A DNA stretch of 64,000 nucleotides from Candidatus Minusculum obligatum (GCA_045401155.1 CP174360.1:159035-223034), one strand, 5' to 3'; counted from the stretch's first letter, positions 2 through 63,755 are shown. Notes: generated by a model not told the origin, from the sequence alone. A program made the numbers and translations.

Positions 2-1735
2 CACAAACCACACAAACCATACACCACATGGTTCCTTCTAGGATCTCTTGGATTTTTCGTACTTGCAGTAATCGTTTCAGCAATCCTAATCCTCCAGGGA
101 GGACGAACCGTATCTCCAAAGAATATTCAGCTAGATGTAGAGCTGCCACCTGCGATTGCATCAGGGGAGAGTATTAAGATTGAAGCAAAGGTAAAAAATA
201 CAAATCCTGTAAGCCTTCCATTTGCAGAACTTACCGCTACCTTCCCAGAGGGAACACGTGAAGCAGATGACGTAAGTAAAGAATTACAATACAAAACCAT
301 TTCTCTTGGACCACTAAAACCAGGACAAGAAAAAGATCTTCTACTTGAAGGTGTGCTTTTTGGAGTTGAAGGAGAGGAAAAGGAAATTAAACTGCGTCTT
401 GAATTTAGACCAGAGAACTCAAACGCTATTGTGGTAAAAGAGGAAACCTATCCAATTATTATTAGTAGCGCACCACTTGCGGTAGTCCTTGCCGCACCTG
501 AAGAAGTGGCGCCAGGTGAGCGCTTCACGACAACCATCACGGTACAAACAAACTCAGAAGAATCAGTACCAGATGCGACACTTCTGCTCGAATACCCATT
601 TGGCTACTCTGTACGCGATGCATCTCCAACAGCTGACCTTGCAAATAACGTATGGAATCTAGGAACCCTAAAGCCTGGAGAGAAGAAAGAAATAACCGTA
701 ACAGGAGATATCACCGGAAACTCTGGAGATGAGCGATACATCCGCGCATACATTGGAACAGATCTCTCACCTGGAGGAGGATCTCTTGGTCTTATTTACA
801 TGGAGCAGGATGTGAAAGTGGCGCTCGTAGATAGCCAATTAGCAATCTCACTATCTCTCGATGGAAACGCAAACGACACATATACCGCACAAGCAGGGGA
901 TGATATCACCGCACGTCTAACCTGGAAGAATAATCTTGATTCACAAATCTTCGATGGAGAAATCACCATTGCATTTACAGGAGATGCCATCGACACTAAT
1001 AGAATCTCAATTAGTCGAGGATTCTACCAAGCACAAAACAATACAATCGTATTTAATCGAGACACAAACTCAGAACTACAAACGATTGATCCAGATGAGC
1101 GGGGAACTATTACCTTCACCATCCCAATTAAACAAACCGCAGACCTGCAAAGCCTACGCAACCCATCTCTTTCAATTGTAGGAACGATTGCAGGAAGGGA
1201 AGTCGGAAGTGGGTCACCATCTATCATTTCAAATAAGACAGAGCGAGAAGTACAAGTGGCCTCAGCACTAAGTCTAAACAGTACGCTCACCAGAACAATC
1301 GGAGCCTTTAGTAATATCGGACCATGGCCTCCGGTGCAGGGACAAACAACCACATACACACTGACCCTTGTTGCAAATAACACGACAAATACTGTCGCAA
1401 ACGCGCAGGTGCGATTTGTGCTGCCATCGTATGCAACATACACACAAGCAAAATCACCTCTATCTGCAAATGTAAGCTATGACGAGCGAACAGGAGAAGT
1501 AATCTGGAGTATCGGCGAGATTGCCTCACACAGTCAGAAATCTGTAGCACTACAAATTGGTATCACCCCAAATCAATCACAAGTAGGACAAACACCACAG
1601 GTAGTGGGGCAGCAAATTCTTGAAGGATTTGATCGATTCATACAAAATACCGTGCAAACGGTAGGGACATCAAAAAATACTGCAATTACTGATGATCCAG
1701 CATATACTGGAGATAAAGGCGCAGTTGCAAACTAA
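2..1735 (+). CDS. 5'-truncated membrane-anchored surface protein: N-terminal TM helix (FLLGSLGFFVLAVIVSAILIL) followed by repeated beta-sandwich (DUF11/CARDB-like) segments
   Basis: The reading frame is open from the window edge with no in-window start; the ORF track only picks it up at an internal Met at 353. Repeated '...LG.LKPGE.K.ITVTG...' units and a stop at 1733-1735. Confidence 0.5.
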   Translation, partial: HKPHKPYTTWFLLGSLGFFVLAVIVSAILILQGGRTVSPKNIQLDVELPPAIASGESIKIEAKVKNTNPVSLPFAELTATFPEGTREADDVSKELQYKTISLGPLKPGQEKDLLLEGVLFGVEGEEKEIKLRLEFRPENSNAIVVKEETYPIIISSAPLAVVLAAPEEVAPGERFTTTITVQTNSEESVPDATLLLEYPFGYSVRDASPTADLANNVWNLGTLKPGEKKEITVTGDITGNSGDERYIRAYIGTDLSPGGGSLGLIYMEQDVKVALVDSQLAISLSLDGNANDTYTAQAGDDITARLTWKNNLDSQIFDGEITIAFTGDAIDTNRISISRGFYQAQNNTIVFNRDTNSELQTIDPDERGTITFTIPIKQTADLQSLRNPSLSIVGTIAGREVGSGSPSIISNKTEREVQVASALSLNSTLTRTIGAFSNIGPWPPVQGQTTTYTLTLVANNTTNTVANAQVRFVLPSYATYTQAKSPLSANVSYDERTGEVIWSIGEIASHSQKSVALQIGITPNQSQVGQTPQVVGQQILEGFDRFIQNTVQTVGTSKNTAITDDPAYTGDKGAVAN

Positions 1736-3104: not shown

Positions 3105-4154
3105 ATGAAAAACACCCCTATTAACATTTCAATCACTACAGGAGCAGTCATCAAGATCCTCCTTATTCTTGTGGGAGCATATACGCTCTACATTTTGCGT
3201 GATCTAGCGCTCCTGGTTATCACCGCTATTGTATTGGCCTCAGCTGTTGAGCCAGGTGTCGATTTCTTTAGACGACGACTACGCGTACATCGCGTAATAG
3301 CGGTGCTATTTACATACCTATTGGTATTTGGATCTATATTTGGAGCCATTTACTACTTCTTGCCACCGGTACTCGATGAGGCACAGTCATTTATTGGACT
3401 GTTGCCGCAATACCTTGAGACTATCCAGCTTCCAACTTCAATTGGAAACCCTGGATTTATTGCAGCTGAAACCACAAGCGCTAAGACAAGTATTCTAGAT
3501 TCACTTCTTGCATTACAATCTTCATTTGCTGATACCGGAGAGGGAATTGTGCGCCTGCTTGCCACAGTCTTTGGAGGTATCTTCTCACTTATTCTTACGA
3601 TTGTACTTTCATTCTACTTTGCGGTACGAGATACCGGTATTGATGACTTCCTAAAGCTTATTACACCCGTAAAGCATCAAGAATATGTGCTTGGACTATG
3701 GCGACGATCTCAAAAGAAGATTGGACTATGGATGCAAGGACAGCTCATGCTCTCACTCATTATTGGAATCTTGCTCTACCTCGGACTTACAATCCTTGGC
3801 GTGCCGTACGCACTCTTGCTCGCAGTCTTTGCTGCAGTGCTTGAGCTTATTCCTGTATTTGGGTCTATCATCGCTGCGATCCCAGGAGTTATTGTGGCGC
3901 TTGTAGATGGAGGACCAACACTCGCACTTATTGTTGCCGCACTCTTCTTGATCGTAAACCAATTCCAAGGAAACCTTATCTATCCTTTGGTGGTGAAGAA
4001 GGTGATCGGCGTACCACCACTACTTGTGATTCTCGCACTTATTGCAGGAGGACAATTGGCAGGATTTATTGGGGTAATCCTCTCAGTACCTATCGCAGCC
4101 GGAATCCAAGAACTCGTACACGACTTCCAGCAAAAGCGAAAAAGCTCCTCGTGA
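3105..4154 (+). CDS. AI-2E family transporter (UPF0118/PerM-like permease)
   Basis: Multi-TM protein with the family-typical N-terminal 'LVITAIVLASAVEP' and C-terminal 'PLLVILALIAGGQLAGFIGVILSVPIAA' segments. Confidence 0.7.
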   Translation: MKNTPINISITTGAVIKILLILVGAYTLYILRDLALLVITAIVLASAVEPGVDFFRRRLRVHRVIAVLFTYLLVFGSIFGAIYYFLPPVLDEAQSFIGLLPQYLETIQLPTSIGNPGFIAAETTSAKTSILDSLLALQSSFADTGEGIVRLLATVFGGIFSLILTIVLSFYFAVRDTGIDDFLKLITPVKHQEYVLGLWRRSQKKIGLWMQGQLMLSLIIGILLYLGLTILGVPYALLLAVFAAVLELIPVFGSIIAAIPGVIVALVDGGPTLALIVAALFLIVNQFQGNLIYPLVVKKVIGVPPLLVILALIAGGQLAGFIGVILSVPIAAGIQELVHDFQQKRKSSS

Positions 4155-4205
4155 TTGACTTTTTGTAAATTCATTGTACTTTGATGCTAGGAAAGGGGGT
4201 GCAAC

Positions 4206-4541
4206 ATGGAGCACTCATTTGAGTTATTTTTTGCCCTTTGTATAGGGCATGCCGTCGTCGATTACGGACTGAGCACCGAGTATGTTGCCCTCGGCAAATC
4301 ACACAAGAACCCCGTGGGTAAAGGTGTGTGGCCGTGGGTTCTGCTCGCACACTCGCTCATGCATGCCGGCGTAGTGTATACCATCACCGGGTACTGGATC
4401 CTGGCGGTGGGAGAGCTTCTGCTGCATGCGATCACGGATTACCTGAAGTCCGACGGCAAAATCAACTATCACGTTGATCAATCAATCCACTATCTCACAA
4501 AAGGTCTCTGGGTCTACATGACCCTCTATGTCCTCTCGTGA
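4206..4541 (+). CDS. small His-rich membrane protein (DUF3307-like); GC-rich orphan cassette C1
   Basis: 111 aa with 3-4 TM helices and conserved His/Asp motifs (GHAVVDY, LAHSLMHAG, LLHAITDYL). Upstream 'ggaaagggggtgcaacATG' is a ribosome-binding site. Codon usage is GC3-rich (ctg/gcc/ggc), unlike neighbouring genes. Confidence 0.5.
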   Translation: MEHSFELFFALCIGHAVVDYGLSTEYVALGKSHKNPVGKGVWPWVLLAHSLMHAGVVYTITGYWILAVGELLLHAITDYLKSDGKINYHVDQSIHYLTKGLWVYMTLYVLS

Positions 4542-4608
4542 AAACCAGATGGAGGGAGCGGAGCAGCAATGCTTCGCTTTTCTTTTTAATAATGCTACGC
4601 TCAAGGGG

Positions 4609-6030
4609 ATGGCAAATCGCTACATAACAACTACACTTCCGTACGTAAACGCAGATCCACATGTGGGATTTGGACTTGAAATCGTACAAGCAGACTTCCT
4701 CGCTCGGTACTGGAGACTAACTGGAGAAGATGTATTTTTCACAACCGGAACAGATGAGCACGGACAAAAAATCTTCCAAAAAGCACAAGAAGAGGGGAAA
4801 GACGTACAAGCGTACGTAGATCATTACGCCAATGAGTTTAAAAAGCTAAAGGAGGCACTCAATCTTTCAAATGACGCATTTATCCGCACAACAGATGAAA
4901 AGCACATTAATGCTGCACAAGAAATCTGGAAGCGCTGCGAAGCAAATGGAGATATTTATAAAAAGAAGTACAAGGGACTCTACTGTGTAGGAGATGAGGC
5001 ATTTCTAAAAGAAAATGAATTGGTAGATGGAAAGTGTCCAAACCATCCAACAATGGATCCAGTTGAAATTGAAGAAGAAAACTATTTCTTTAAGTTTAGT
5101 AATTACCAAGACAAGCTACTGAAGTATCTTGAGAATGAAGAGGTAATCATTCCAGACTGGCGTCGTAAAGAGGCAATTGAGTTTGTAAAAAATGGTCTTG
5201 AAGACTTTTCTATCTCTCGTGAAAAAGAACGGCTCTCTTGGGGCGTGCCCGTACCTGGAGATGACTCACAAGTAATGTACGTATGGTTTGATGCGCTTAC
5301 CAACTACATCTCGACACTAGATTGGCCAGAAGGAGAACACTTTAAAAAGTACTGGGAGAATGCGCATGTACTACAAGTAGCAGGGAAGGATCAGGTACGA
5401 TTCCAATCACTTATCTTCCAAGCGATGCTCCTGTCAGCTAATGTAAAGAATACTGATCAAGTCTTTTACCATGGCTTCATTACCTCAAATGGACAGAAGA
5501 TGAGTAAGTCTATTGGAAACGTAATCTCTCCATATGAGCTTATCGAAAAATACGGAACCGATGCTACGCGGTACCTGCTTCTTCGACATGTGCATCCTGT
5601 AGATGATTCAGACATTACGTGGGAGAAACTAGATGAGTGGTATACCGCTAACTTGGTAAATGGAATTGGAAATCTAACCGCCCGCATCACCAAGCTTGCA
5701 GAAACACACCTAGAAGGGCCAATTGAAAAACCAGACGCAGAAACATTCCCAAGTGAGTACACATCTGCAATCGATAACTTTAAATTTAATGAAGCACTCG
5801 ATTACATCTTTAAACGAGTGGGAGATCTCGATAAGCGAATCACAGATGAAGAGCCATTTAAGGTAGTAAAGACAGATCTAGAAAAGGGAAGAGAGTTAAT
5901 TAAGGAATATATGGAGGAACTTTATGTAATTGGACGACTGCTCAATCCAGTTATGCCTGAAAGCTCAAATATAATTAAAGAGTCAGTACTCAAGAACACA
6001 AAACCAGAAGGACTCTTCCAACGCCTTTAG
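4609..6030 (+). CDS. metG: methionine--tRNA ligase
   Basis: PYVNADPHVGF (HIGH-type) and KMSKSIGN (KMSKS) motifs. Likely start is MANRYITT at 4609; the track ORF starts upstream at 4528. Confidence 0.9.
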   Translation: MANRYITTTLPYVNADPHVGFGLEIVQADFLARYWRLTGEDVFFTTGTDEHGQKIFQKAQEEGKDVQAYVDHYANEFKKLKEALNLSNDAFIRTTDEKHINAAQEIWKRCEANGDIYKKKYKGLYCVGDEAFLKENELVDGKCPNHPTMDPVEIEEENYFFKFSNYQDKLLKYLENEEVIIPDWRRKEAIEFVKNGLEDFSISREKERLSWGVPVPGDDSQVMYVWFDALTNYISTLDWPEGEHFKKYWENAHVLQVAGKDQVRFQSLIFQAMLLSANVKNTDQVFYHGFITSNGQKMSKSIGNVISPYELIEKYGTDATRYLLLRHVHPVDDSDITWEKLDEWYTANLVNGIGNLTARITKLAETHLEGPIEKPDAETFPSEYTSAIDNFKFNEALDYIFKRVGDLDKRITDEEPFKVVKTDLEKGRELIKEYMEELYVIGRLLNPVMPESSNIIKESVLKNTKPEGLFQRL

Positions 6031-6031
6031 T

Positions 6032-6136
6032 ATGCAAAACAAAACCACAATCATAATCCTTGTAGTACTCGCAATACTTTTTGCATGGATTGAACTATCT
6101 GTGGGACTTTTTAGTACTCCGTGGGCAGGGTCATAA
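6032..6136 (+). CDS. possible 34-aa single-TM micro-protein translationally coupled to metG
   Basis: ATG lies 2 nt after the metG stop and encodes MQNKTTIIILVVLAILFAWIELSVGLFSTPWAGS; a terminator hairpin follows. Confidence 0.25.
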   Translation: MQNKTTIIILVVLAILFAWIELSVGLFSTPWAGS

Positions 6137-6181
6137 TATGAAATAGAAGACCGCCTACGGAAGCGCTCTTCCATAGGCGGT

Positions 6182-6478
6182 TTAGGCGAAGGTGTACCCC
6201 TCCCATTGAACATCACCGCAATTTTTGCAGGTATGGGCCTTTACGTCGTTCATACATTCACCGCCGTGTCCCCACGTGTAGCCGCAGGTGTCACATGTGT
6301 GAAAGTGATGTTCCAAAAATGCTTGATTGTGTTCGTGATGCTCGCGAAGCATCTGTTCGAACGTCTCAATCATCTCTTGAACTTGCCGCTCTCTTTGCCG
6401 GCGCAGGTAACGCCTTCGTACATATGAGAGAAGTAGGCAAAGAGCGCCGCCAAGTAGCGCTGAAAACAGCAGTCCCAT
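6182..6478 (-). CDS. small membrane-anchored protein with C-terminal Cys/His-rich zinc-ribbon-like motif (CDTCGYTWGHGGEC...HTCKNCGD); GC-rich orphan cassette C2
   Basis: N-terminal TM helix plus CxxC...CxxC. The minus-strand leader has the ribosome-binding site 'gaagagggacacaccATG', a TTGACA-18-TATAGT promoter and a downstream hairpin at 6150-6180. Confidence 0.45.
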   Translation of the reverse strand: MGLLFSALLGGALCLLLSYVRRRYLRRQRERQVQEMIETFEQMLREHHEHNQAFLEHHFHTCDTCGYTWGHGGECMNDVKAHTCKNCGDVQWEGYTFA

Positions 6479-6579
6479 GGTGTGTCCCTCTTCAGATTGA
6501 AAGTTCTATAGGCTCTTTTAACTATACAACATAAACTAATCAAGTGTCAATTTATACTTGATTATGCTACAGTCCACCT

Positions 6580-8292: not shown

Positions 8293-8302
8293 TAATTGAG
8301 AT

Positions 8303-8503
8303 ATGGACGACGAGAAAAAGACAATGGATACACCACGATTTGTGGACTACAAGGATACAGACTACCTAAAGCAGTTTGTGAATCCACACGCACGTATCAA
8401 TAACCGACGACGTACACGAGTATCTGCACGCCGACAGCGAGAAATCACTCAAGCTATCAAGCGCGCACGATTCATGGCACTGATGCCGTACATCGCTCGA
8501 TAA
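8303..8503 (+). CDS. rpsR: 30S ribosomal protein S18
   Basis: NPHARINNRRRTRVSARRQREITQAIKRARFMALMPY. Confidence 0.9.
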   Translation: MDDEKKTMDTPRFVDYKDTDYLKQFVNPHARINNRRRTRVSARRQREITQAIKRARFMALMPYIAR

Positions 8504-8506
8504 TAA

Positions 8507-8531
8507 AAAGCACCCGGAAGGGTGTTTTTTA
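8507..8531 (+). terminator. rho-independent terminator after rpsR
   Basis: cacccggaagggtg hairpin followed by TTTTTT. Confidence 0.7.
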
Positions 8532-8566
8532 AAACAGAAACGCCCAGCGGACGTTTCCGCTAGGCG

Positions 8567-8773
8567 TTAGGGGTAAAAATCAAGGCTGATCCCGCTGAAG
8601 TAAAAGTCACACACGTTGGTTTTGGGTGAGATAATCTTGTGCCCAACCAAAACAAACGGCATAACAACCAAAGCTGCAAGAATTGCAACAATGATAACCG
8701 CAACCATGAGGATGCCGATGCACAGCAGGAAAAAGTAGCCTATGGTTTTCAGAAGATCTACAAATAGCTTCAT
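8567..8773 (-). CDS. small hydrophobic membrane protein (about 68 aa)
   Basis: MKLFVDLLKTIGYFFLLCIGILMVAVIIVAILAALVVMPFVLVGH... preceded on the minus strand by the ribosome-binding site 'aaaggagtattctgATG'. A 13-bp hairpin (8530-8560) follows its stop. Confidence 0.35.
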   Translation of the reverse strand: MKLFVDLLKTIGYFFLLCIGILMVAVIIVAILAALVVMPFVLVGHKIISPKTNVCDFYFSGISLDFYP

Positions 8774-9142
8774 CAGAATACTCCTTTCCCAATTCAGAAG
8801 ATAATACAAATAAAAAATAAGCGCAATGCGCTTATAAGGTGTCTTGGAGATGAGGCTGTGCACGCAGCCTCATCTCCATATGTCTGGAAAGATATTCATC
8901 AGACTGACGATGGGAACATAACTCCACCGGGCTGGCTGAATCTTGTTGCAAGAGGCTCAAATGAGCAGTGGCGCCCCTCAGGGCGCCGCCTAGTACGCTG
9001 CTCCGACAAGATCTCTTTATTGAAGCGGGCGGAATAACTTCTTTAACTTGATGATTGCCGGAAATCATCAAGTTTTGACCTGAGACCAAACCGTCCCTGA
9101 CCAATGTGCGTACCAGGCTCTGCGAGAGAGTATATAGTAACT

Positions 9143-11834: not shown

Positions 11835-12248
11835 TCAGGGCGCTTCGTCTTCAGTAAGATCGATTTTCAGACGTTGGAACGTACGTGCCTTCGTCTTGTT
11901 GTCGAACTTGTTGATACCGTAGAACGACATGTCATCGTTGTAGTAGAAGGTGACGTGCCATTCATGGAAGTCGATGCTGCTCTTGGACTCAAGTGGCAGC
12001 CAGCCGTTCTCGTCAGTGTGCTTGAGCACAATGACGCCACAGATGGCATCCTCGTCGCTGCCGATCTGGACCCCAATATTCATCGTATCGTTGCTGTCCA
12101 CGAAGGACCTTTGCAGCTTCAGATGTCCGTGTCCCAAGTCTTGGAGCTCGCCAACGCTATGCTTCAGGGCGCGGGCTACCTGCCAGAAATGGTAGATACC
12201 GACGGCAGTGCCGAGTCCGATCGTATTTTCATTCAAGGTGCTTTTCAT
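11835..12248 (-). CDS. hypothetical 137-aa protein; GC-rich orphan cassette C3
   Basis: About 56% GC against about 46% in the flanks. Ribosome-binding site is 'aaaggggaaagaaaaATG', and it has its own promoter and operator. No homology recognised. Confidence 0.5.
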   Translation of the reverse strand: MKSTLNENTIGLGTAVGIYHFWQVARALKHSVGELQDLGHGHLKLQRSFVDSNDTMNIGVQIGSDEDAICGVIVLKHTDENGWLPLESKSSIDFHEWHVTFYYNDDMSFYGINKFDNKTKARTFQRLKIDLTEDEAP

Positions 12249-29261: not shown

Positions 29262-30020
29262 CCTGGCTACGTGATTAGTGATAAAAAAACGACCAGATAA
29301 AGGAAAGCGGATCAACCGCGCATTAATGCGTACCGCTTCCTGCTGAAGCGGATTTTTTATTCCAGAAAGAGAGTCACGCATGATGTTTGAAAATTGAATA
29401 GAAGAGCGAATGCATTTCATCAGCAATAATTCATAAAAGTTATTGTGGTTACCAGATCTCCTTTTTGGAGACTGTAAGAGTATATGGGGGATGCCTTGGC
29501 TCAAACGAGCGATGAAGGACGTGGAAGTCTGCGATAAGCTTCGGGGAGATGACAAACAATCTTTGATCCGGAGATTTCCGAATGGGGGAACCCAATCAAT
29601 TGTTATTGATTACTTATTGGGTCGCACCAATAAGAGCGAACCTGGGGAACTGAAACATCTAAGTACCCAGAGGAATAGAAAGCAACAGGGACTATTTTCT
29701 GTCTGGTTCCTTTTAGGATTCGGATAGAGGGTAGTCTTGCGATTTCCTTAGTAGCGGCGAGCGAAACGGAAGAAGCCCAAACCGGATACTTCGGTATCCG
29801 GGGTTGTACGGCAAAGGTGCTGCACTTGTGTAGGAAGAGTTACCAAGTGTGAATATAGAAAAAGTATCTGGGAAGATACACCATAGAGGGTAATAGTCCC
29901 GTATTCGAAATATTCACACCTCTTTCGCCTTTGTTCGTGAGTAGCTCGAGACATGAATAGCTCGAGTGAATCTGGGAGGACTAACTCCTAAGGCTAAATA
30001 TCGTTTGAGACCGATAGTGA

Positions 30021-30054
<34 letters not shown>

Positions 30055-30621
30055 GAGAGGGGAGTGAAATAGAACTGAAACCATATACTTACAAACAGTT
30101 GGAGGGGTACTTGTACCCTGACAGCGTGCCTATTGAAGAATGAGCCGGCGAGTGTATATGTGCTGCAAGCTAAGTCCGTAATGGGACGGAGCTTTAGGGA
30201 AACCGAGTGTGAATAGCGCGTTAGTAGTATGTATACGACCCGAAACTAAGTGAGCTTGCCATGGGCAGGGTGAACACGTGTGAAAACACGTGGGAGGCCC
30301 GCACCGGTTGGTCGTTTAATGCCATCGGATGACCTGTGGTAGGGAGTGAAAAGCTAATCGAACTTAGTAATAGCTGGTTCTCTCCGAAACAGCTTTAGGG
30401 TTGGCGTCGCGTGTTCCCTTCGGGGGTAGAGCACTGGAAGGACTAAATAGGGGGAAACCTCGTTAGTCCTATCAAACTCCGAATACCGAAGATTAATAAC
30501 GCGGCAGTTAGACTGCGGGGAGAAGCTCCGTTGGTCGAAAGGGGAACAGCCCAGATCGCCAGTTAAGGCCCCTAAATTAGTGCTCAGTGTAACTTAAGGA
30601 AGTGAGGATCCTCCGACAATG

Positions 30622-30672
<51 letters not shown>

Positions 30673-30740
30673 TCATCAAGGGTCCTTGCGCCGCAAATGA
30701 TCGGGACTTAAGCACTATGCCGAAACTGCGGGTTCGCGGA

Positions 30741-30919
30741 TTTCATTCAGGAAATGTTCTTTGTTTATTGAGGGGTGTTGGCCGAGCGGTTAAAGGCAGC
30801 GGGCTCGTCAGCCCGTGAGTTGGGAATCGTATGTCCCAGTACAACTCATCGCAGGTTCGAATCCTGTACACCCTGCCAATAAACTTTTTGACAATCTTCG
30901 GATTGTCTCCTGAATGAAA
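30741..30919 (+). other. intervening sequence inserted in 23S helix 45, closed by a perfect 12-bp inverted repeat (tttcattcagga / tcctgaatgaaa) and containing a tRNA-like element
   Basis: Alignment to the E. coli helix-45 region shows about 180 extra nt between 'ggttcgcgga' and 'tccgtgagcgg'. The flanks are perfectly complementary, and an inner 7-bp stem gtttatt/aataaac also brackets the tRNA-like core. Confidence 0.7.
30772..30878 (+). tRNA. class-II tRNA(Ser)-like element with encoded CCA, embedded in the 23S helix-45 insertion; anticodon loop is 6 nt (TCGTCA), so possibly a non-decoding pseudo-tRNA
   Basis: Acceptor GGGGTGT/ACACCCT, D arm TGGCCGAGCGGTTAAAGGCA (matches bacterial tRNA-Ser), anticodon stem CGGGC/GCCCG, a roughly 35-nt variable hairpin (GAGTTG...CAACTC), T arm GCAGG-TTCGAAT-CCTGT, discriminator G and CCA. 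Confidence 0.45.
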
Positions 30920-31631
30920 TCCGTGAGCGGTAGGAGAGCGTTCTGTTCGCGATGAAGGTAAAGGGGTGACCCATACTGGAGCGTACAGAAGTGAGAATGC
31001 CGGCACGAGTAACCGCAATGCGAGTGAGAGCCTCGCACACCGAAAGACCAAGGTTTCCGCAGCTACGATGATCAGCTGCGGGTTAGTCGGGCCTAAGGGG
31101 ATGACGAAAGTCGCACCCGATGGACACATGGTTAATATTCCATGACTGCATTACTATGCGATGGGGGGACGGATTGTTGTACACATTGCCCATTATTGGA
31201 TTTGGGTCGATGCTATGAGGGCTGCTTTTAGGTAAATCCGGAAGCGTATAGTCCAAGTAGAGTCGCAATGTTTTGGTTTCGGCCAGAATAGAGAATGTGG
31301 AGCACGGTTCCCAGAAAAGCCTCTAAGCATAATAGTAATGTATCCGTACCGCAATCCAACACAGGTGGTCAGGGCGAGTAGCCCAAGGTGAACGAGTGAT
31401 GGGTCCTCAAGGAACTCGGCAAAAAAGCGACCGTAACTTCGGGATAAGGTCTGCCCCTGCTTCTTCGGAGGTGGGGGCCGCAGCGAAAGTTTCTCTGGCG
31501 ACTGTTTATCAAAAACACAGCTCCCTGCGAACTCGTAAGAGTATGTATAGGGGGTGACGCCTGACCAATGCCAGAAGGTTAAGCACGGATGGTACATTTC
31601 TTCGGATTTGTGCTGGGCTGTGTAAGCCCTG

Positions 31632-31670
<39 letters not shown>

Positions 31671-32378
31671 TAATTCCTTGTCGGGTAAGTTCCGACGTGC
31701 ACGAATGGCGTAACGACTGGAGAACTGTCTCGAGGACTTGCTCGGTGAAAATGCAATCCCGGTAAAGATGCCGGGTAGATGTGGAAAGACAGAAAGACCC
31801 CAGAAGCTTTACTACAGCTTCGTATTGGGGCTGCGTGACATGTGCGTAGCATAGGTGGGAGACTTTGAAGCATTCCTTTTGGGGAATGTGGAGTCGTCAG
31901 TGAAATACCACTCTCATGTTGTTCAGTCTCTAACCCTTAGGGAAACCCTAAAGGGACAGTGCGTGGTGGGTAGTTTGAGTGGGGCGCTCTCCTCCTAAAA
32001 AGTAACGGAGGAGTCTATTAAGGTCAGCTAGGCGCGAATGGACACCGTGCCGATAGTGTAATGGCAAAAGCTGGCTTGACTGTGAGGGGTACGTCCCGAG
32101 CAGGTGCGAAAGCAGAGCATAGTGATCCGACTGTACGCATTAGATGCGGCAGGAGCTCAACGGATAAAAGCTACTCTGGGGATAACAGGCTAGTCGCGCC
32201 CAAGCGTCCATAGCGACGGCGCGGTTCGGCACCTCGATGTCGGCTCATCTTATCCTGGGGCTGGAGAAGGTCCCAAGGGTTTGGCTGTTCGCCAATTAAA
32301 AAGATACGCGAGCTGGGTTCAAACCGTCGTGAGACAGGTTGGTTCTCTATCTTCCACATCCGTCGATTCTTGCAGAGA

Positions 32379-32411
<33 letters not shown>

Positions 32412-32469
32412 AACCTCTGGTCTATCGGCTGTCACGCCAGTGGCACTGCCGAGTAGCTATGTTCGGAAT

Positions 32470-32502
<33 letters not shown>

Positions 32503-32710
32503 AACTCTAAGATTAGGAATCATTAAGACCCCTAGGAGATGACTAGGTTGATAGGCTCTACGTAGAAGTACAGTGATGTATTGAGCGGAGGAGTACTAAT
32601 TCGTCGTCGTCTCCAACAAGGAAGTCTGGATGACACAATATCTTTGAAGCTTTTGCTGATGAAATGTATTCGCTTTTCTTTCAATGAAATAAAAAACAAC
32701 GTGTTTTTTG

Positions 32711-32818
32711 TGTTGGTGATATGGCAAGGTGGAAACACCTGTTCTCATTCCGAACACAGAAGTTAAGCGCCTTCGCGCCGATGGTACTCGAAAGGGGAGA
32801 GTAGGTCGTCGCCAACAC
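32711..32818 (+). rRNA. rrf: 5S ribosomal RNA (about 108 nt)
   Basis: CCGAACACAGAAGTTAAGCGCC..CGCGCCGATGGTACT...GAGAGTAGG; the 5' gtgttggtg pairs with the 3' cgccaacac. Confidence 0.85.
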
Positions 32819-42155: not shown

Positions 42156-42515
42156 ATGACTATAACTGCAGACGATGCTGTTGGGTGCGCTTTTGCGCGT
42201 CCTACAGAATCAGCGACAATGACTTCGCATTGCGAAAGTGTCGTGCTCCTTGGAGGTTCGCTTCCTAATAAGGGGCAGAAAGCAATAGAGCGTGCGTACC
42301 GTCGGTTGCCGGAAGAGTGGCGCGCGTACAAGAAAAAGCACCCGCTTCTTCTTCAAGCGATCGATGCGATTCTGGGTTACTCAGAGACGGCCCGCAGTCG
42401 GGCGCTCAAGCACGGTTCACTTGGTGATCTTACCCCGAATATTCCAGCTGATCTTTGCTATCTGGGTCGTTTCCCAGACAGCAAGCTTCAGGAGATCAAA
42501 AAAGCGATCTCTTGA
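42156..42515 (+). CDS. hypothetical 119-aa protein; GC-rich orphan cassette C4
   Basis: About 55% GC. Ribosome-binding site is 'cgaaagggaatacagATG'. Bracketed by a terminator at 42077-42104 and a hairpin at 42525-42551. Confidence 0.45.
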   Translation: MTITADDAVGCAFARPTESATMTSHCESVVLLGGSLPNKGQKAIERAYRRLPEEWRAYKKKHPLLLQAIDAILGYSETARSRALKHGSLGDLTPNIPADLCYLGRFPDSKLQEIKKAIS

Positions 42516-42757: not shown

Positions 42758-42904
42758 GGCCCCACTGTCTAGAAAGGCAGTTTTTGATTGATTTTTGAAA
42801 CACGAGTCTAGTCCATTGGAGCTACCAAGTGACTAGATCATAGAGTACGTAATGATCACTGAGTTAAGTGGAATGAAATATATTTTCTTTCGTTCCGCCT
42901 ATTC

Positions 42905-44362
<1,458 letters not shown>

Positions 44363-44550
44363 GTGGACTTCTTGTACTTTGTACAAGTACGGCGATCATC
44401 TGTTTTACAGATGTGGACATGGCACTCATCCAGAAATGGTGCCCGGCGTACCTACAGTCGGAAGTAGGTCGTTGTGTTGTCGAATTCGCAACATAACGTG
44501 AATAGGCGGAACGAATGAGTATATATTTCAGATTTACGTACACTATGAGC

Positions 44551-44659: not shown

Positions 44660-44944
44660 ATGTGCGCGTATCCTGCAGAATATCCAGTTGACCCTATTGC
44701 ACAGCTCCGCAAGGAGATGGGCACGGGCGGCTGGAGACATCGTTTGGTCCGAGTGTTTCGCACACGGGTCAGGCAGTTCTTCACAACCTGCGAGCTTTTC
44801 TTTGCTCGCAAGAAAAAGAGTTCGTATGTGGCAGACCCCATTGCCGCATTTGATCACGAGTATGCAAGGACAATCGAAGTTCTGTGCTGGGCATATGCCT
44901 GGTATTGTCTTACCGTGATCTTCCACGCGATTCTTCTTCTATAG
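44660..44944 (+). CDS. hypothetical 94-aa protein (C-terminal hydrophobic segment); GC-rich orphan cassette C5
   Basis: Ribosome-binding site is 'aaaggggaattaagtATG'. GC3-rich codons. Tandem hairpin terminators at 44951-44980 and 44989-45012. Confidence 0.45.
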   Translation: MCAYPAEYPVDPIAQLRKEMGTGGWRHRLVRVFRTRVRQFFTTCELFFARKKKSSYVADPIAAFDHEYARTIEVLCWAYAWYCLTVIFHAILLL

Positions 44945-63431: not shown

Positions 63432-63755
63432 TTATCCGAACAGCGGACGGTCGATTGCTCTCAAAAAGAGTGCAATTATGGATGCAGCAAATGTAAGACC
63501 GACACCGATGCCGACAAGCATTACGGCAAAGGCTGGATATGTGATGGTCAGAACCCACACACATATGCCAGCAAATGCTGAGCTGAGGCATACGCTGATC
63601 CAGTCAAATTTTGTCATCCATTTGTACGAAATCATGTACAGGACTGCAGTTGTGGTTGTCGCCGTAGGGCTCACCGCGGGCCAGAGAATGAGAGTTGTGA
63701 TTGCATAGACGCCCGCAAGGGCGAGCAAGCACAAAACAACGATTACATTTTTCAT
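63432..63755 (-). CDS. hypothetical polytopic membrane protein
   Basis: 107 aa with 3 predicted TM helices. Confidence 0.45.
   Translation of the reverse strand: MKNVIVVLCLLALAGVYAITTLILWPAVSPTATTTTAVLYMISYKWMTKFDWISVCLSSAFAGICVWVLTITYPAFAVMLVGIGVGLTFAASIIALFLRAIDRPLFG

Follow-up and report, generated by a model that had tools for sequence, protein, structure and literature searches.

Locus and architecture of C1

C1 is a small gene cassette in a 64,000-nucleotide stretch of DNA from Candidatus Minusculum obligatum (GCA_045401155.1, CP174360.1:159035-223034), which is called here the window. The cassette carries one gene, coding for a membrane protein of the DUF3307 family. As stated in an earlier note on this DNA, the gene lies between an AI-2E family transporter gene, whose TGA stop codon (4152-4154) forms the left edge of the insertion, and metG, whose product matches the methionyl-tRNA synthetase (MetRS) family PF09334 with E 7.5e-100. 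The true start of metG is ATG 4609, because translation from it begins with MANRYITT, in register with the metG starts found in relatives; the longest-ORF (open reading frame) start at 4528 was rejected and, therefore, C1 and metG do not overlap. In the nearest cassette-free genome (L009, also the nearest outgroup, with an AI-2E protein 78% identical) the junction reads TGATAGT-ctcaaggca-ATG, with metG beginning 13 nt past the AI-2E stop, and the box TGATAGT, the counterpart of the -10-like box of metG, sits at the 3' end of the AI-2E gene. In NCBI, a 'DUF3307 domain-containing protein' of Patescibacteria bacterium UBA2103 has the very sequence predicted for the C1 product (100% identity). The features of the locus, together with those located elsewhere in the window, are listed in Table 1.

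Table 1. Coordinates of C1, its flanks and related features, counted from the first nucleotide of the window
Feature	Position	Strand	Description or basis
AI-2E family transporter gene (upstream flank)	3105..4154	+	Pfam PF01594, E 4.7e-61
-35-like hexamer TTGACT	4155..4160	+	putative, from comparison of lineages; directly after the AI-2E stop; TTGAC kept in five lineages
-10-like hexamer TACTTT	4177..4182	+	putative; 16 nt past the -35; TAnnnT in all lineages
Shine-Dalgarno-like purine motif GGAAAGGGGGTG	4190..4201	+	4 nt between motif and ATG, 6 nt between G-run and ATG
C1 coding sequence	4206..4541	+	ATG to TGA, 111 aa, DUF3307 family, four predicted transmembrane helices
Intrinsic terminator	4554..4591	+	hairpin 4554-4581, then T-run; terminator scan
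Right edge: -10-like box TAATGCT of metG, short leader and metG ATG	4590..4611	+	comparison with relatives
Other cassette ORF	6182-6478	-	shared composition, motif, terminator
Other cassette ORF	11835-12248	-	shared composition, motif, terminator
Other cassette ORF	42156-42515	+	shared composition, motif, terminator
Other cassette ORF	44660-44944	+	shared composition, motif, terminator
Other cassette ORF	63432-63755	-	shared composition, motif, terminator
16S rRNA 3' end GGATCAATTCCAAG, without canonical anti-Shine-Dalgarno CCTCC	44350..44363	+	sequence read; Rfam match

The cassette was aligned from five lineages, the window (W) and four relatives designated L008, L007, L001 and L095. A common order of elements was found in all of them: TTGAC(T/A/g), an unconserved spacer of 16-17 nt, TAnnnT, a GGAG-type core, the ORF, a hairpin with a T-run and, finally, the -10-like box of metG. 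TTGAC follows either directly on the stop codon of AI-2E or, where an extra gene is present, on that gene. At the same spacing as in the window, the -10 counterparts of the relatives are TAACTT, TATTTT, TATCTT and TATGCT, and the putative C1 promoter is backed by this conservation. The terminator hairpin is also present in the five lineages, with fold z-scores from -3.1 to -4.5, and where the stems differ between lineages, both paired bases have changed. Because the -35 and -10 hexamers, the GGAG core and the hairpin are kept while the spacers have been randomised, C1 is, as judged from the alignment, a self-contained promoter-leader-ORF-terminator unit of about 435 bp (4155-4591) with a predicted sigma-70-type promoter. 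Its terminator would insulate metG, which would keep its own promoter.

Family, distribution and base composition of C1

The assignment to DUF3307 made in the earlier note was upheld through the relatives of the protein. Taken alone, the window protein matches PF11750 (DUF3307) with E 5.9e-4 and 20.3 bits over model positions 1-100 of 127, below the gathering cut-off of 23; its membership follows by transitive homology, since relatives link it to PF11750. This profile is matched by all 60 aligned relatives (best E 2.5e-13), and the orthologue P0004 has a precomputed PF11750 match. A profile search from C1 reached 828 clusters at 50% identity (E <= 1e-3), and the 60-member profile (E <= 1e-5) reached 3,476 clusters at 90% identity, with all but one of the 120 matches listed belonging to PF11750. 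In its size of about 110 residues, its predicted four transmembrane helices and its pattern of invariant H/D/E/K/Q residues C1 agrees with this family, and it differs from it in its own score and in its place within a small divergent clade. The protein also matches phrog_2470 along its full length (E 8.5e-21 and 75.4 bits, with residues 3-106 aligned to positions 4-116 of the 119 in the profile), which is described in PHROGs as 'membrane protein' within the category 'moron, auxiliary metabolic gene and host takeover'. In contrast to that phage family, C1 is chromosomal in a Patescibacterium, has no phage genes around it and has long been fixed. No match of the window protein was found in NCBIfam, nor in the PADLOC defence models at E <= 1. 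The term 'orphan', used for C1 in the earlier note, has to be withdrawn, as four relatives occupy the same site; on these comparisons C1 is a divergent member of a known family, DUF3307, and its small clade comprises five sequences so far, which reach no more than 50% identity to any others. The InterPro entry of PF11750 is named after Orf197 of phage phiKZ. In the literature, gp197 is mentioned, in the text checked, solely as a protein of phiPA3, in a table of homologues.

The homology searches showed that the C1 gene family is carried mainly by phages, including GC-rich temperate phages of Proteobacteria. By tblastn, relatives were detected in 297 of 50,697 phage records against 4 of 72,556 plasmids, in agreement with the occurrence in phages mentioned in the earlier note. 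The closest match outside the clade is a protein of the Pseudomonas jumbo phage PS119XW, with 50.5% identity over 93% of the protein; the top matches outside the clade are phage proteins, which supports the foreign, phage-pool origin that the same note had proposed. Carriers comprise phiKZ-like jumbo phages (PA7), PS119XW-like jumbo phages and T5-like Salmonella and Escherichia phages (EPS7 group), as well as phages of Rhizobium, Sulfitobacter, Aeromonas and Ralstonia. From IMG/VR, 267 contigs were retrieved by two narrow peptide patterns and 80 loci were kept, with a mean GC of 0.59. The annotations that recur most among the immediate neighbours in these 80 viral loci are those of endolysin-type families (seven PHROG endolysin/chitinase families with 2-3 members each; Pfam PG_binding_1, GH19, Phage_lysozyme, SLT and M15), followed by portal/terminase and a few anti-defence genes. 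Other homologues are found in a Sulfitobacter prophage/phage (L096/L097), near Acb3 and upstream of terminase, in an integrase-bearing element next to Tad3 (L099 and L100 have Tad3/anti-defence neighbours) and in a plasmid-like Paraburkholderia contig. Acb3 and Tad3 are anti-defence genes of recent definition; in the IMG/VR loci Acb1 was seen twice and Acb3 once as neighbours, an association too sparse to call. In IMG/VR and the JGI metagenomes, clade-specific searches for a closer donor returned only relatives at 38-45% identity.

Only four other sequences group with C1, at 61-69% identity. The cassette is carried by the window and L001-L008/L095 only, in the same synteny glyS-AI2E-C1-metG-tatD-rpsF-ssb-rpsR, and these carriers are 80-84% (AI-2E), 88% (glycyl-tRNA synthetase, GlyRS) and 83% (MetRS) identical to the window. 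For comparison, 80 species-level genomes were gathered by their AI-2E orthologue (52-78% identity), which are labelled as Wolfe-/Kaiserbacteria, Paceibacterota or Parcubacteria. The DUF3307 profile gave no match within 6 kb on either side of AI-2E in any of the 80 genomes; regarding the presence or absence in related genomes, which the earlier note had proposed to check, orthologues at the locus are therefore confined to the nearest relatives. Besides, metG starts at most 23 nt past the AI-2E stop, or overlaps it, in 77 of the 77 loci holding both genes, and the wider array (DUF11 protein, glyS, AI-2E, metG, tatD, rpsF and ssb) is conserved in the 80 relatives. Since AI-2E and metG abut and DUF3307 is absent in the relatives, C1 is a clade-specific insertion into a tightly packed conserved array. 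In W and L008 the cassette edges and the 5' leader are alike almost base for base, which argues for a single event. The comparison of loci has shown one insertion, exactly between the AI-2E stop and the -10 box of metG, which took place in the ancestor of a narrow Paceibacteria/'Kaiserbacteria-Wolfebacteria'-like clade, and the substitution pattern has shown that C1 has since then been vertically inherited, as far as the sequences tell, under purifying selection. Non-synonymous divergence (dN) of C1 is 0.20-0.38, synonymous divergence (dS) is above 1.8 or not computable and their ratio (omega) is 0.08-0.15 where computable; the residues invariant in the family are all kept in the window protein and the four orthologues. 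Being common to at least five lineages, whose AI-2E proteins have 80-90% identity, the insertion is old and not recent.

Two further observations concern this junction. In L001 (4610-4870, minus strand) and L095 (about 350-640, minus strand) a second small Cys-containing ORF stands between AI-2E and C1, which is 86-97 aa long, GC-rich, provided with its own bidirectional terminator and missing in the window, in L007 and in L008. Within this clade the AI-2E/metG junction is thus a place where genes accumulate. L095 is a mosaic: the 5' half of its C1, the leader and the extra upstream gene are L001-like, whereas the 3' half of C1, the terminator and the metG start are nearly identical to those of L008 (four-fold identity 0.65). 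This points to homologous recombination inside the cassette among clade members.

The GC-rich codons that the earlier note had set against the background of the genome are well supported by the base composition. The GC content at third codon positions (GC3) of C1 is 0.652 and its overall GC 0.518, against a GC of 0.434 in the whole window; the 42 well-supported core genes of the window have a GC3 of 0.346 +/- 0.042 with a maximum of 0.441. C1 stands at z = 7.3 with respect to them, or about 6.8 binomial standard deviations for 112 codons, and the idea of a uniform GC3 profile is refuted. The orthologues are graded in this property, with GC3 of 0.39 in L001, 0.43 in L008 and 0.57 in L007, compared with 0.65 in the window copy. 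At four-fold sites, GC is about 0.72 in the window C1, 0.31-0.55 in the orthologues and 0.18-0.33 in the flanks. The dS of the AI-2E flank between the window and relatives is 1.0-1.9 and, under a simple model, the amelioration of an old GC-rich insert should therefore be nearly complete.

Shine-Dalgarno-like motif and predicted protein structure

A ribosome-binding motif at C1, absent from the core genes, was another claim of the earlier note, and the duplex energies agree with it. The motif GGAAAGGGGGTG would pair with the canonical anti-Shine-Dalgarno (anti-SD) sequence at -12.0 kcal/mol, a value matched by 0.65% of random 22-mers of the window; at the starts of the 42 core genes the mean is -2.2 kcal/mol, equal to the background (-2.2 kcal/mol). 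The spacing needs correction, as the 10-mer GGAAAGGGGG (4190-4199) ends 6 nt before the ATG and not 9. The core genes of the window do not use Shine-Dalgarno (SD) sites, because the tail of the 16S rRNA has ATTCC where CCTCC should stand. The 16S rRNA gene spans 42904-44363, and the Rfam small-subunit match reaches the model end (1533) at 44363; no canonical anti-SD tail is hidden downstream, where no CACCTCCTT-like sequence was found nearby. With the native 16S tail the C1 motif gives a duplex of only -4.6 kcal/mol, and pairing of the motif with either the native or an extended tail is weak, with no enrichment at core-gene starts. A -10 box 4-10 nt before the start, as leaderless core genes would have, was seen in 5 of 42 compared with 5.7% of background, so that leaderless core genes are not established.

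In spite of this, the motif is kept in the cassette. It reads GGAAAGGGGGTG in W, GGAAAGGAGGTG in L008, A(A)GGAG in L001 and L095 and GGAGA in L007, so that a GGAG-type core is placed 6-8 nt before the start codon in the five lineages next to a randomised spacer. The C1 copies of L001 and L008 keep SD motifs of -6.4 to -12.9 kcal/mol, whereas the core genes of L001, L008 and L009 are without SD. The similar cassettes with AAAGGG-type motifs reported in the earlier note were also found: six small ORFs of the window (4206+, 6182-, 11835-, 42156+, 44660+ and 63432-) all have a GC3 of 0.48-0.71; a GAAAGGGGA/GGAGG-type motif precedes the ATG of each by 5-9 nt, and each is provided with a hairpin terminator rich in GC. 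The motif stands before 6 of 6 cassettes, whereas it occurs at 3 of 42 core genes and in 6.3% of the background. The window motif of C1 contains AAAGGGG, the same as in three other local cassettes, and L008 has GGAGG. As a separate observation, a hairpin could form at 4197-4216, in which the 3' part of the motif (GGGTGC) pairs with codons 3-4 (GCACTC) and the start codon lies in the loop; the same possible hairpin appears in L008 (1418-1443), with AGGTG pairing with CACCT.

Loss of the anti-SD motif has been published for a subgroup of Parcubacteria (Tsurumaki et al. 2022, RNA 28:1041; PMC9297842). The window resembles this subgroup in a 16S rRNA that ends in GGATCAATTCCAAG without CCTCC and in core genes without SD signal; the passages of that paper on anti-SD and SD sequences, however, are silent on accessory genes that keep a conserved SD-like motif. 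Of all aspects of C1, the conservation of an SD-like signal in a lineage that has no anti-SD is the only one that deserves further work, and if the motif is functional it bears on the start of translation in reduced bacteria whose ribosome lacks the anti-SD. A speculative and rather improbable proposal is that, in Parcubacteria with a 16S rRNA that has lost the anti-SD, the purine-rich GAAAGGGG/GGAG element serves to express acquired accessory genes (C1 and the other five cassettes) without SD:anti-SD pairing, and that selection linked to expression, and not donor history, keeps the GC-rich codons. The element might be read by a ribosomal protein or another rRNA segment, or might act as an RNA-structure or transcription-start signal. 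If true, these minimal cells would have a second initiation pathway specific to accessory genes.

Regarding the protein, AlphaFold2 with a 60-sequence alignment gave a model of pLDDT 97.8 and pTM 0.89, in which a short helix (25-30) accompanies four long ones (2-22, 42-61, 64-82 and 88-109). Among predicted viral structures, those of DUF3307 proteins from phages come closest to it, with TM-scores of 0.86-0.87. In the 60 sequences (about 35-45% identity) the residues H15, D19, K31, H49, E70, H74, D78, D91, Q92, H95 and K99 are invariant, and H53 and K81 are the same in 90% or more of them. With H53, twelve polar residues follow the spacing HxxxD/HxxxH/ExxxHxxxD/DQxxHxxxK, which is of the i/i+4 type, and therefore each helix would carry its share of them on a single face, between the cytoplasmic interface and the middle of the membrane. 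Both termini are predicted to be outside and the Lys-rich loops 23-41 and 83-87 to be cytoplasmic, because these loops fall on one side of the membrane (positive-inside rule). The invariant polar residues would then line a polar cavity from the interface to mid-membrane, and they may form, in the reading that we tentatively favour, the divalent-metal centre of a small membrane-embedded enzyme. It would probably be a hydrolase whose substrate is lipid-linked or lies close to the membrane, and it would work alone, without partner genes. The E. coli protein YdjM (DUF457), a putative membrane-bound metal-dependent hydrolase, was considered as a functional analogue, since it is likewise small and polytopic in the membrane and its His and Asp residues are conserved, but it has no detectable homology to the C1 protein; a relationship was rejected, with an hhalign probability of 0.27% over 8 aligned columns.

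Origin and function of C1, and further features of the window

C1 is probably a cassette horizontally acquired from the phage pool, which was inserted once in a narrow clade of ultra-small Patescibacteria and vertically kept afterwards. Its high GC3 and SD-type signal suggest the traces expected from a GC-rich, SD-using phage pool. Phage morons are autonomous promoter-gene-terminator units located between genes, such as bor and lom of lambda (the Juhala/Hendrix definition). C1 is like them in its own putative promoter and terminator, in a base composition that departs from that of the surrounding genome and in the precise insertion between genes that abut in relatives; nevertheless, morons are defined within prophage genomes and C1 is placed between two cellular housekeeping genes. 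The 'moron-like' character given to it in the earlier note holds, consequently, for the architecture, but not for the setting, which is neither a prophage nor a neighbourhood of phage genes. C1 is a real but fairly ordinary gene transfer, and its general interest is modest. It offers a clean, datable case of a phage-pool gene fixed in a Patescibacteria chromosome and gives a cellular setting to DUF3307, a widespread phage membrane family. Moreover, a cellular DUF3307 gene standing alone under purifying selection argues for an autonomous, probably metal-dependent activity and not for a partner in phage assembly or lysis.

Several results weigh against this interpretation. The promoter-like pair TTGACT...TACTTT of the earlier note is present and conserved in relatives, but the -10 of the window matches only 3 of 6 consensus positions, which is weak, and a consensus promoter scan called no promoter at C1. 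The neighbouring genes (glyS, AI-2E, metG, tatD, rpsF and ssb) include no phage genes, integrase or att-like repeats; in a scan for integration scars, repeats were at chance level, with one 9-nt inverted pair against about 0.8 expected. No donor is nameable, since the best matches outside the clade are only 45-50% identical. The C1 motif fails complementarity to the 16S 3' end of its own host. The view of the high GC3 as a neutral relic does not fit the window copy, at least under the substitution estimates given above; its persistence could be due to selection or biased conversion in some lineages, or to a more recent replacement of the window allele. Finally, no solved structure resembles the C1 protein in structure comparison, the literature on DUF3307 has the name only as a table entry of one paper, with no function for the family and nothing on phrog_2470, and the function of C1 is wholly inferred.

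Three other accounts of the gene or its composition have to be considered. That C1 is an ancestral Patescibacteria gene, vertically descended and lost in most relatives, would agree with five lineages of perfect synteny under purifying selection, but it is extremely improbable: C1 is missing near AI-2E in 80 of the 80 other genomes, and the flanking genes abut in 77 of 77 loci, L009 included, so that many independent scarless deletions would be needed. The composition and SD-type signal of C1 are also unlike those of every core gene, and the family is overwhelmingly phage-borne. It is unlikely, although in keeping with part of the data, that the window copy was replaced or re-acquired more recently by homologous recombination from a GC-richer mobile pool, for instance a phage of the lineage with the same cassette. 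Such an exchange would account for the GC3 of 0.65, given that neutral amelioration cannot hold a four-fold-site GC of about 0.72 at a flank dS of at least 1; the locus recombines, as the mosaic of L095 shows, and the five other small ORFs of the window are alike in composition, motif and terminator style. Nevertheless, no GC-rich homologue above 70% identity was found in 5.8 billion proteins or in IMG/VR, and the window copy has the leader and terminator edges in common with L008. Doubtful, though by no means negligible, is the view that the high GC3 and the purine motif are not relics of the donor but are maintained by the host through selection or biased gene conversion, in relation to mRNA structure or stability or to non-SD initiation. 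The motif is indeed kept in five lineages beside a randomised spacer, the window has the AAAGGGG of three local cassettes and not the GGAGG of L008, and the GC3 outlasts the expected time of amelioration; however, the GC3 of the L001 and L008 orthologues (0.39 and 0.43) is near the background, which makes a high GC3 dispensable for function, no complementary rRNA sequence was found and the 16S tails give weak duplexes.

Concerning the function, the protein could be a membrane protein of a lysis module (holin/antiholin-like), and the locus a dead phage remnant. Lysis cassettes are classic hotspots of morons and, considering also the long survival of C1 as a lone gene, the endolysin-type families that recur beside the homologues in the 80 viral loci are read as positional. 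This account is very unlikely, since no endolysin or phage gene is near C1 in the window, endolysin adjacency is limited to a minority of phage loci and the early or accessory regions of phages contain many of the copies, beside Acb1, Acb3 or Tad3; in addition, holins do not typically have twelve His, Asp, Glu, Lys and Gln residues that stay invariant over thousands of sequences, and C1 alone has been under long-term purifying selection. The metal-centre enzyme is the preferred prediction, and ranked next to it, as an unlikely candidate, is a transport site formed by the HxxxD/HxxxH ladder, by which the protein, probably oligomeric, would move or buffer divalent metal ions or protons. The Zn site of CDF transporters is built from HxxxD pairs on their transmembrane helices, and the polar residues of C1 run from the interface to mid-membrane. 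Against transport, the protein has no sequence or fold similarity to any transporter, and its polar residues are all in the cytoplasmic half, with no through-path evident.

With regard to the remaining features of the window, the five other cassettes gave no significant Pfam match, and no match to 6182-, 11835- and 42156+ was found in NCBIfam, PADLOC or GenBank phages, with weak sub-threshold matches only for 6182-. This last ORF (6182-6478, minus strand) codes for a Cys/His-rich protein of 98 aa and lies in the metG-tatD junction (window 6031-6579), whose length ranges from 0 to about 1,000 nt among the 80 relatives; the junction looks like a second insertion hotspot. The ssb-efp gap (window 8293-9142), which holds rpsR, is 850 nt long against 422 nt in L001 and contains two ORFs on the minus strand, 8567-8863, with a weak PspC-TM match, and 8832-9104; this gap, too, may have arisen by an insertion specific to the lineage. 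The genes for rRNA do not lie together and their order is unusual, with 23S-5S (29464-32817) first and 16S (42904-44363) about 10 kb downstream, separated by protein genes. The 23S rRNA gene spans 3,156 nt against the 2,925 nt of the model, and inside it there is an Rfam tRNA-like match (30772-30875, 42 bits) that was not called by ARAGORN.

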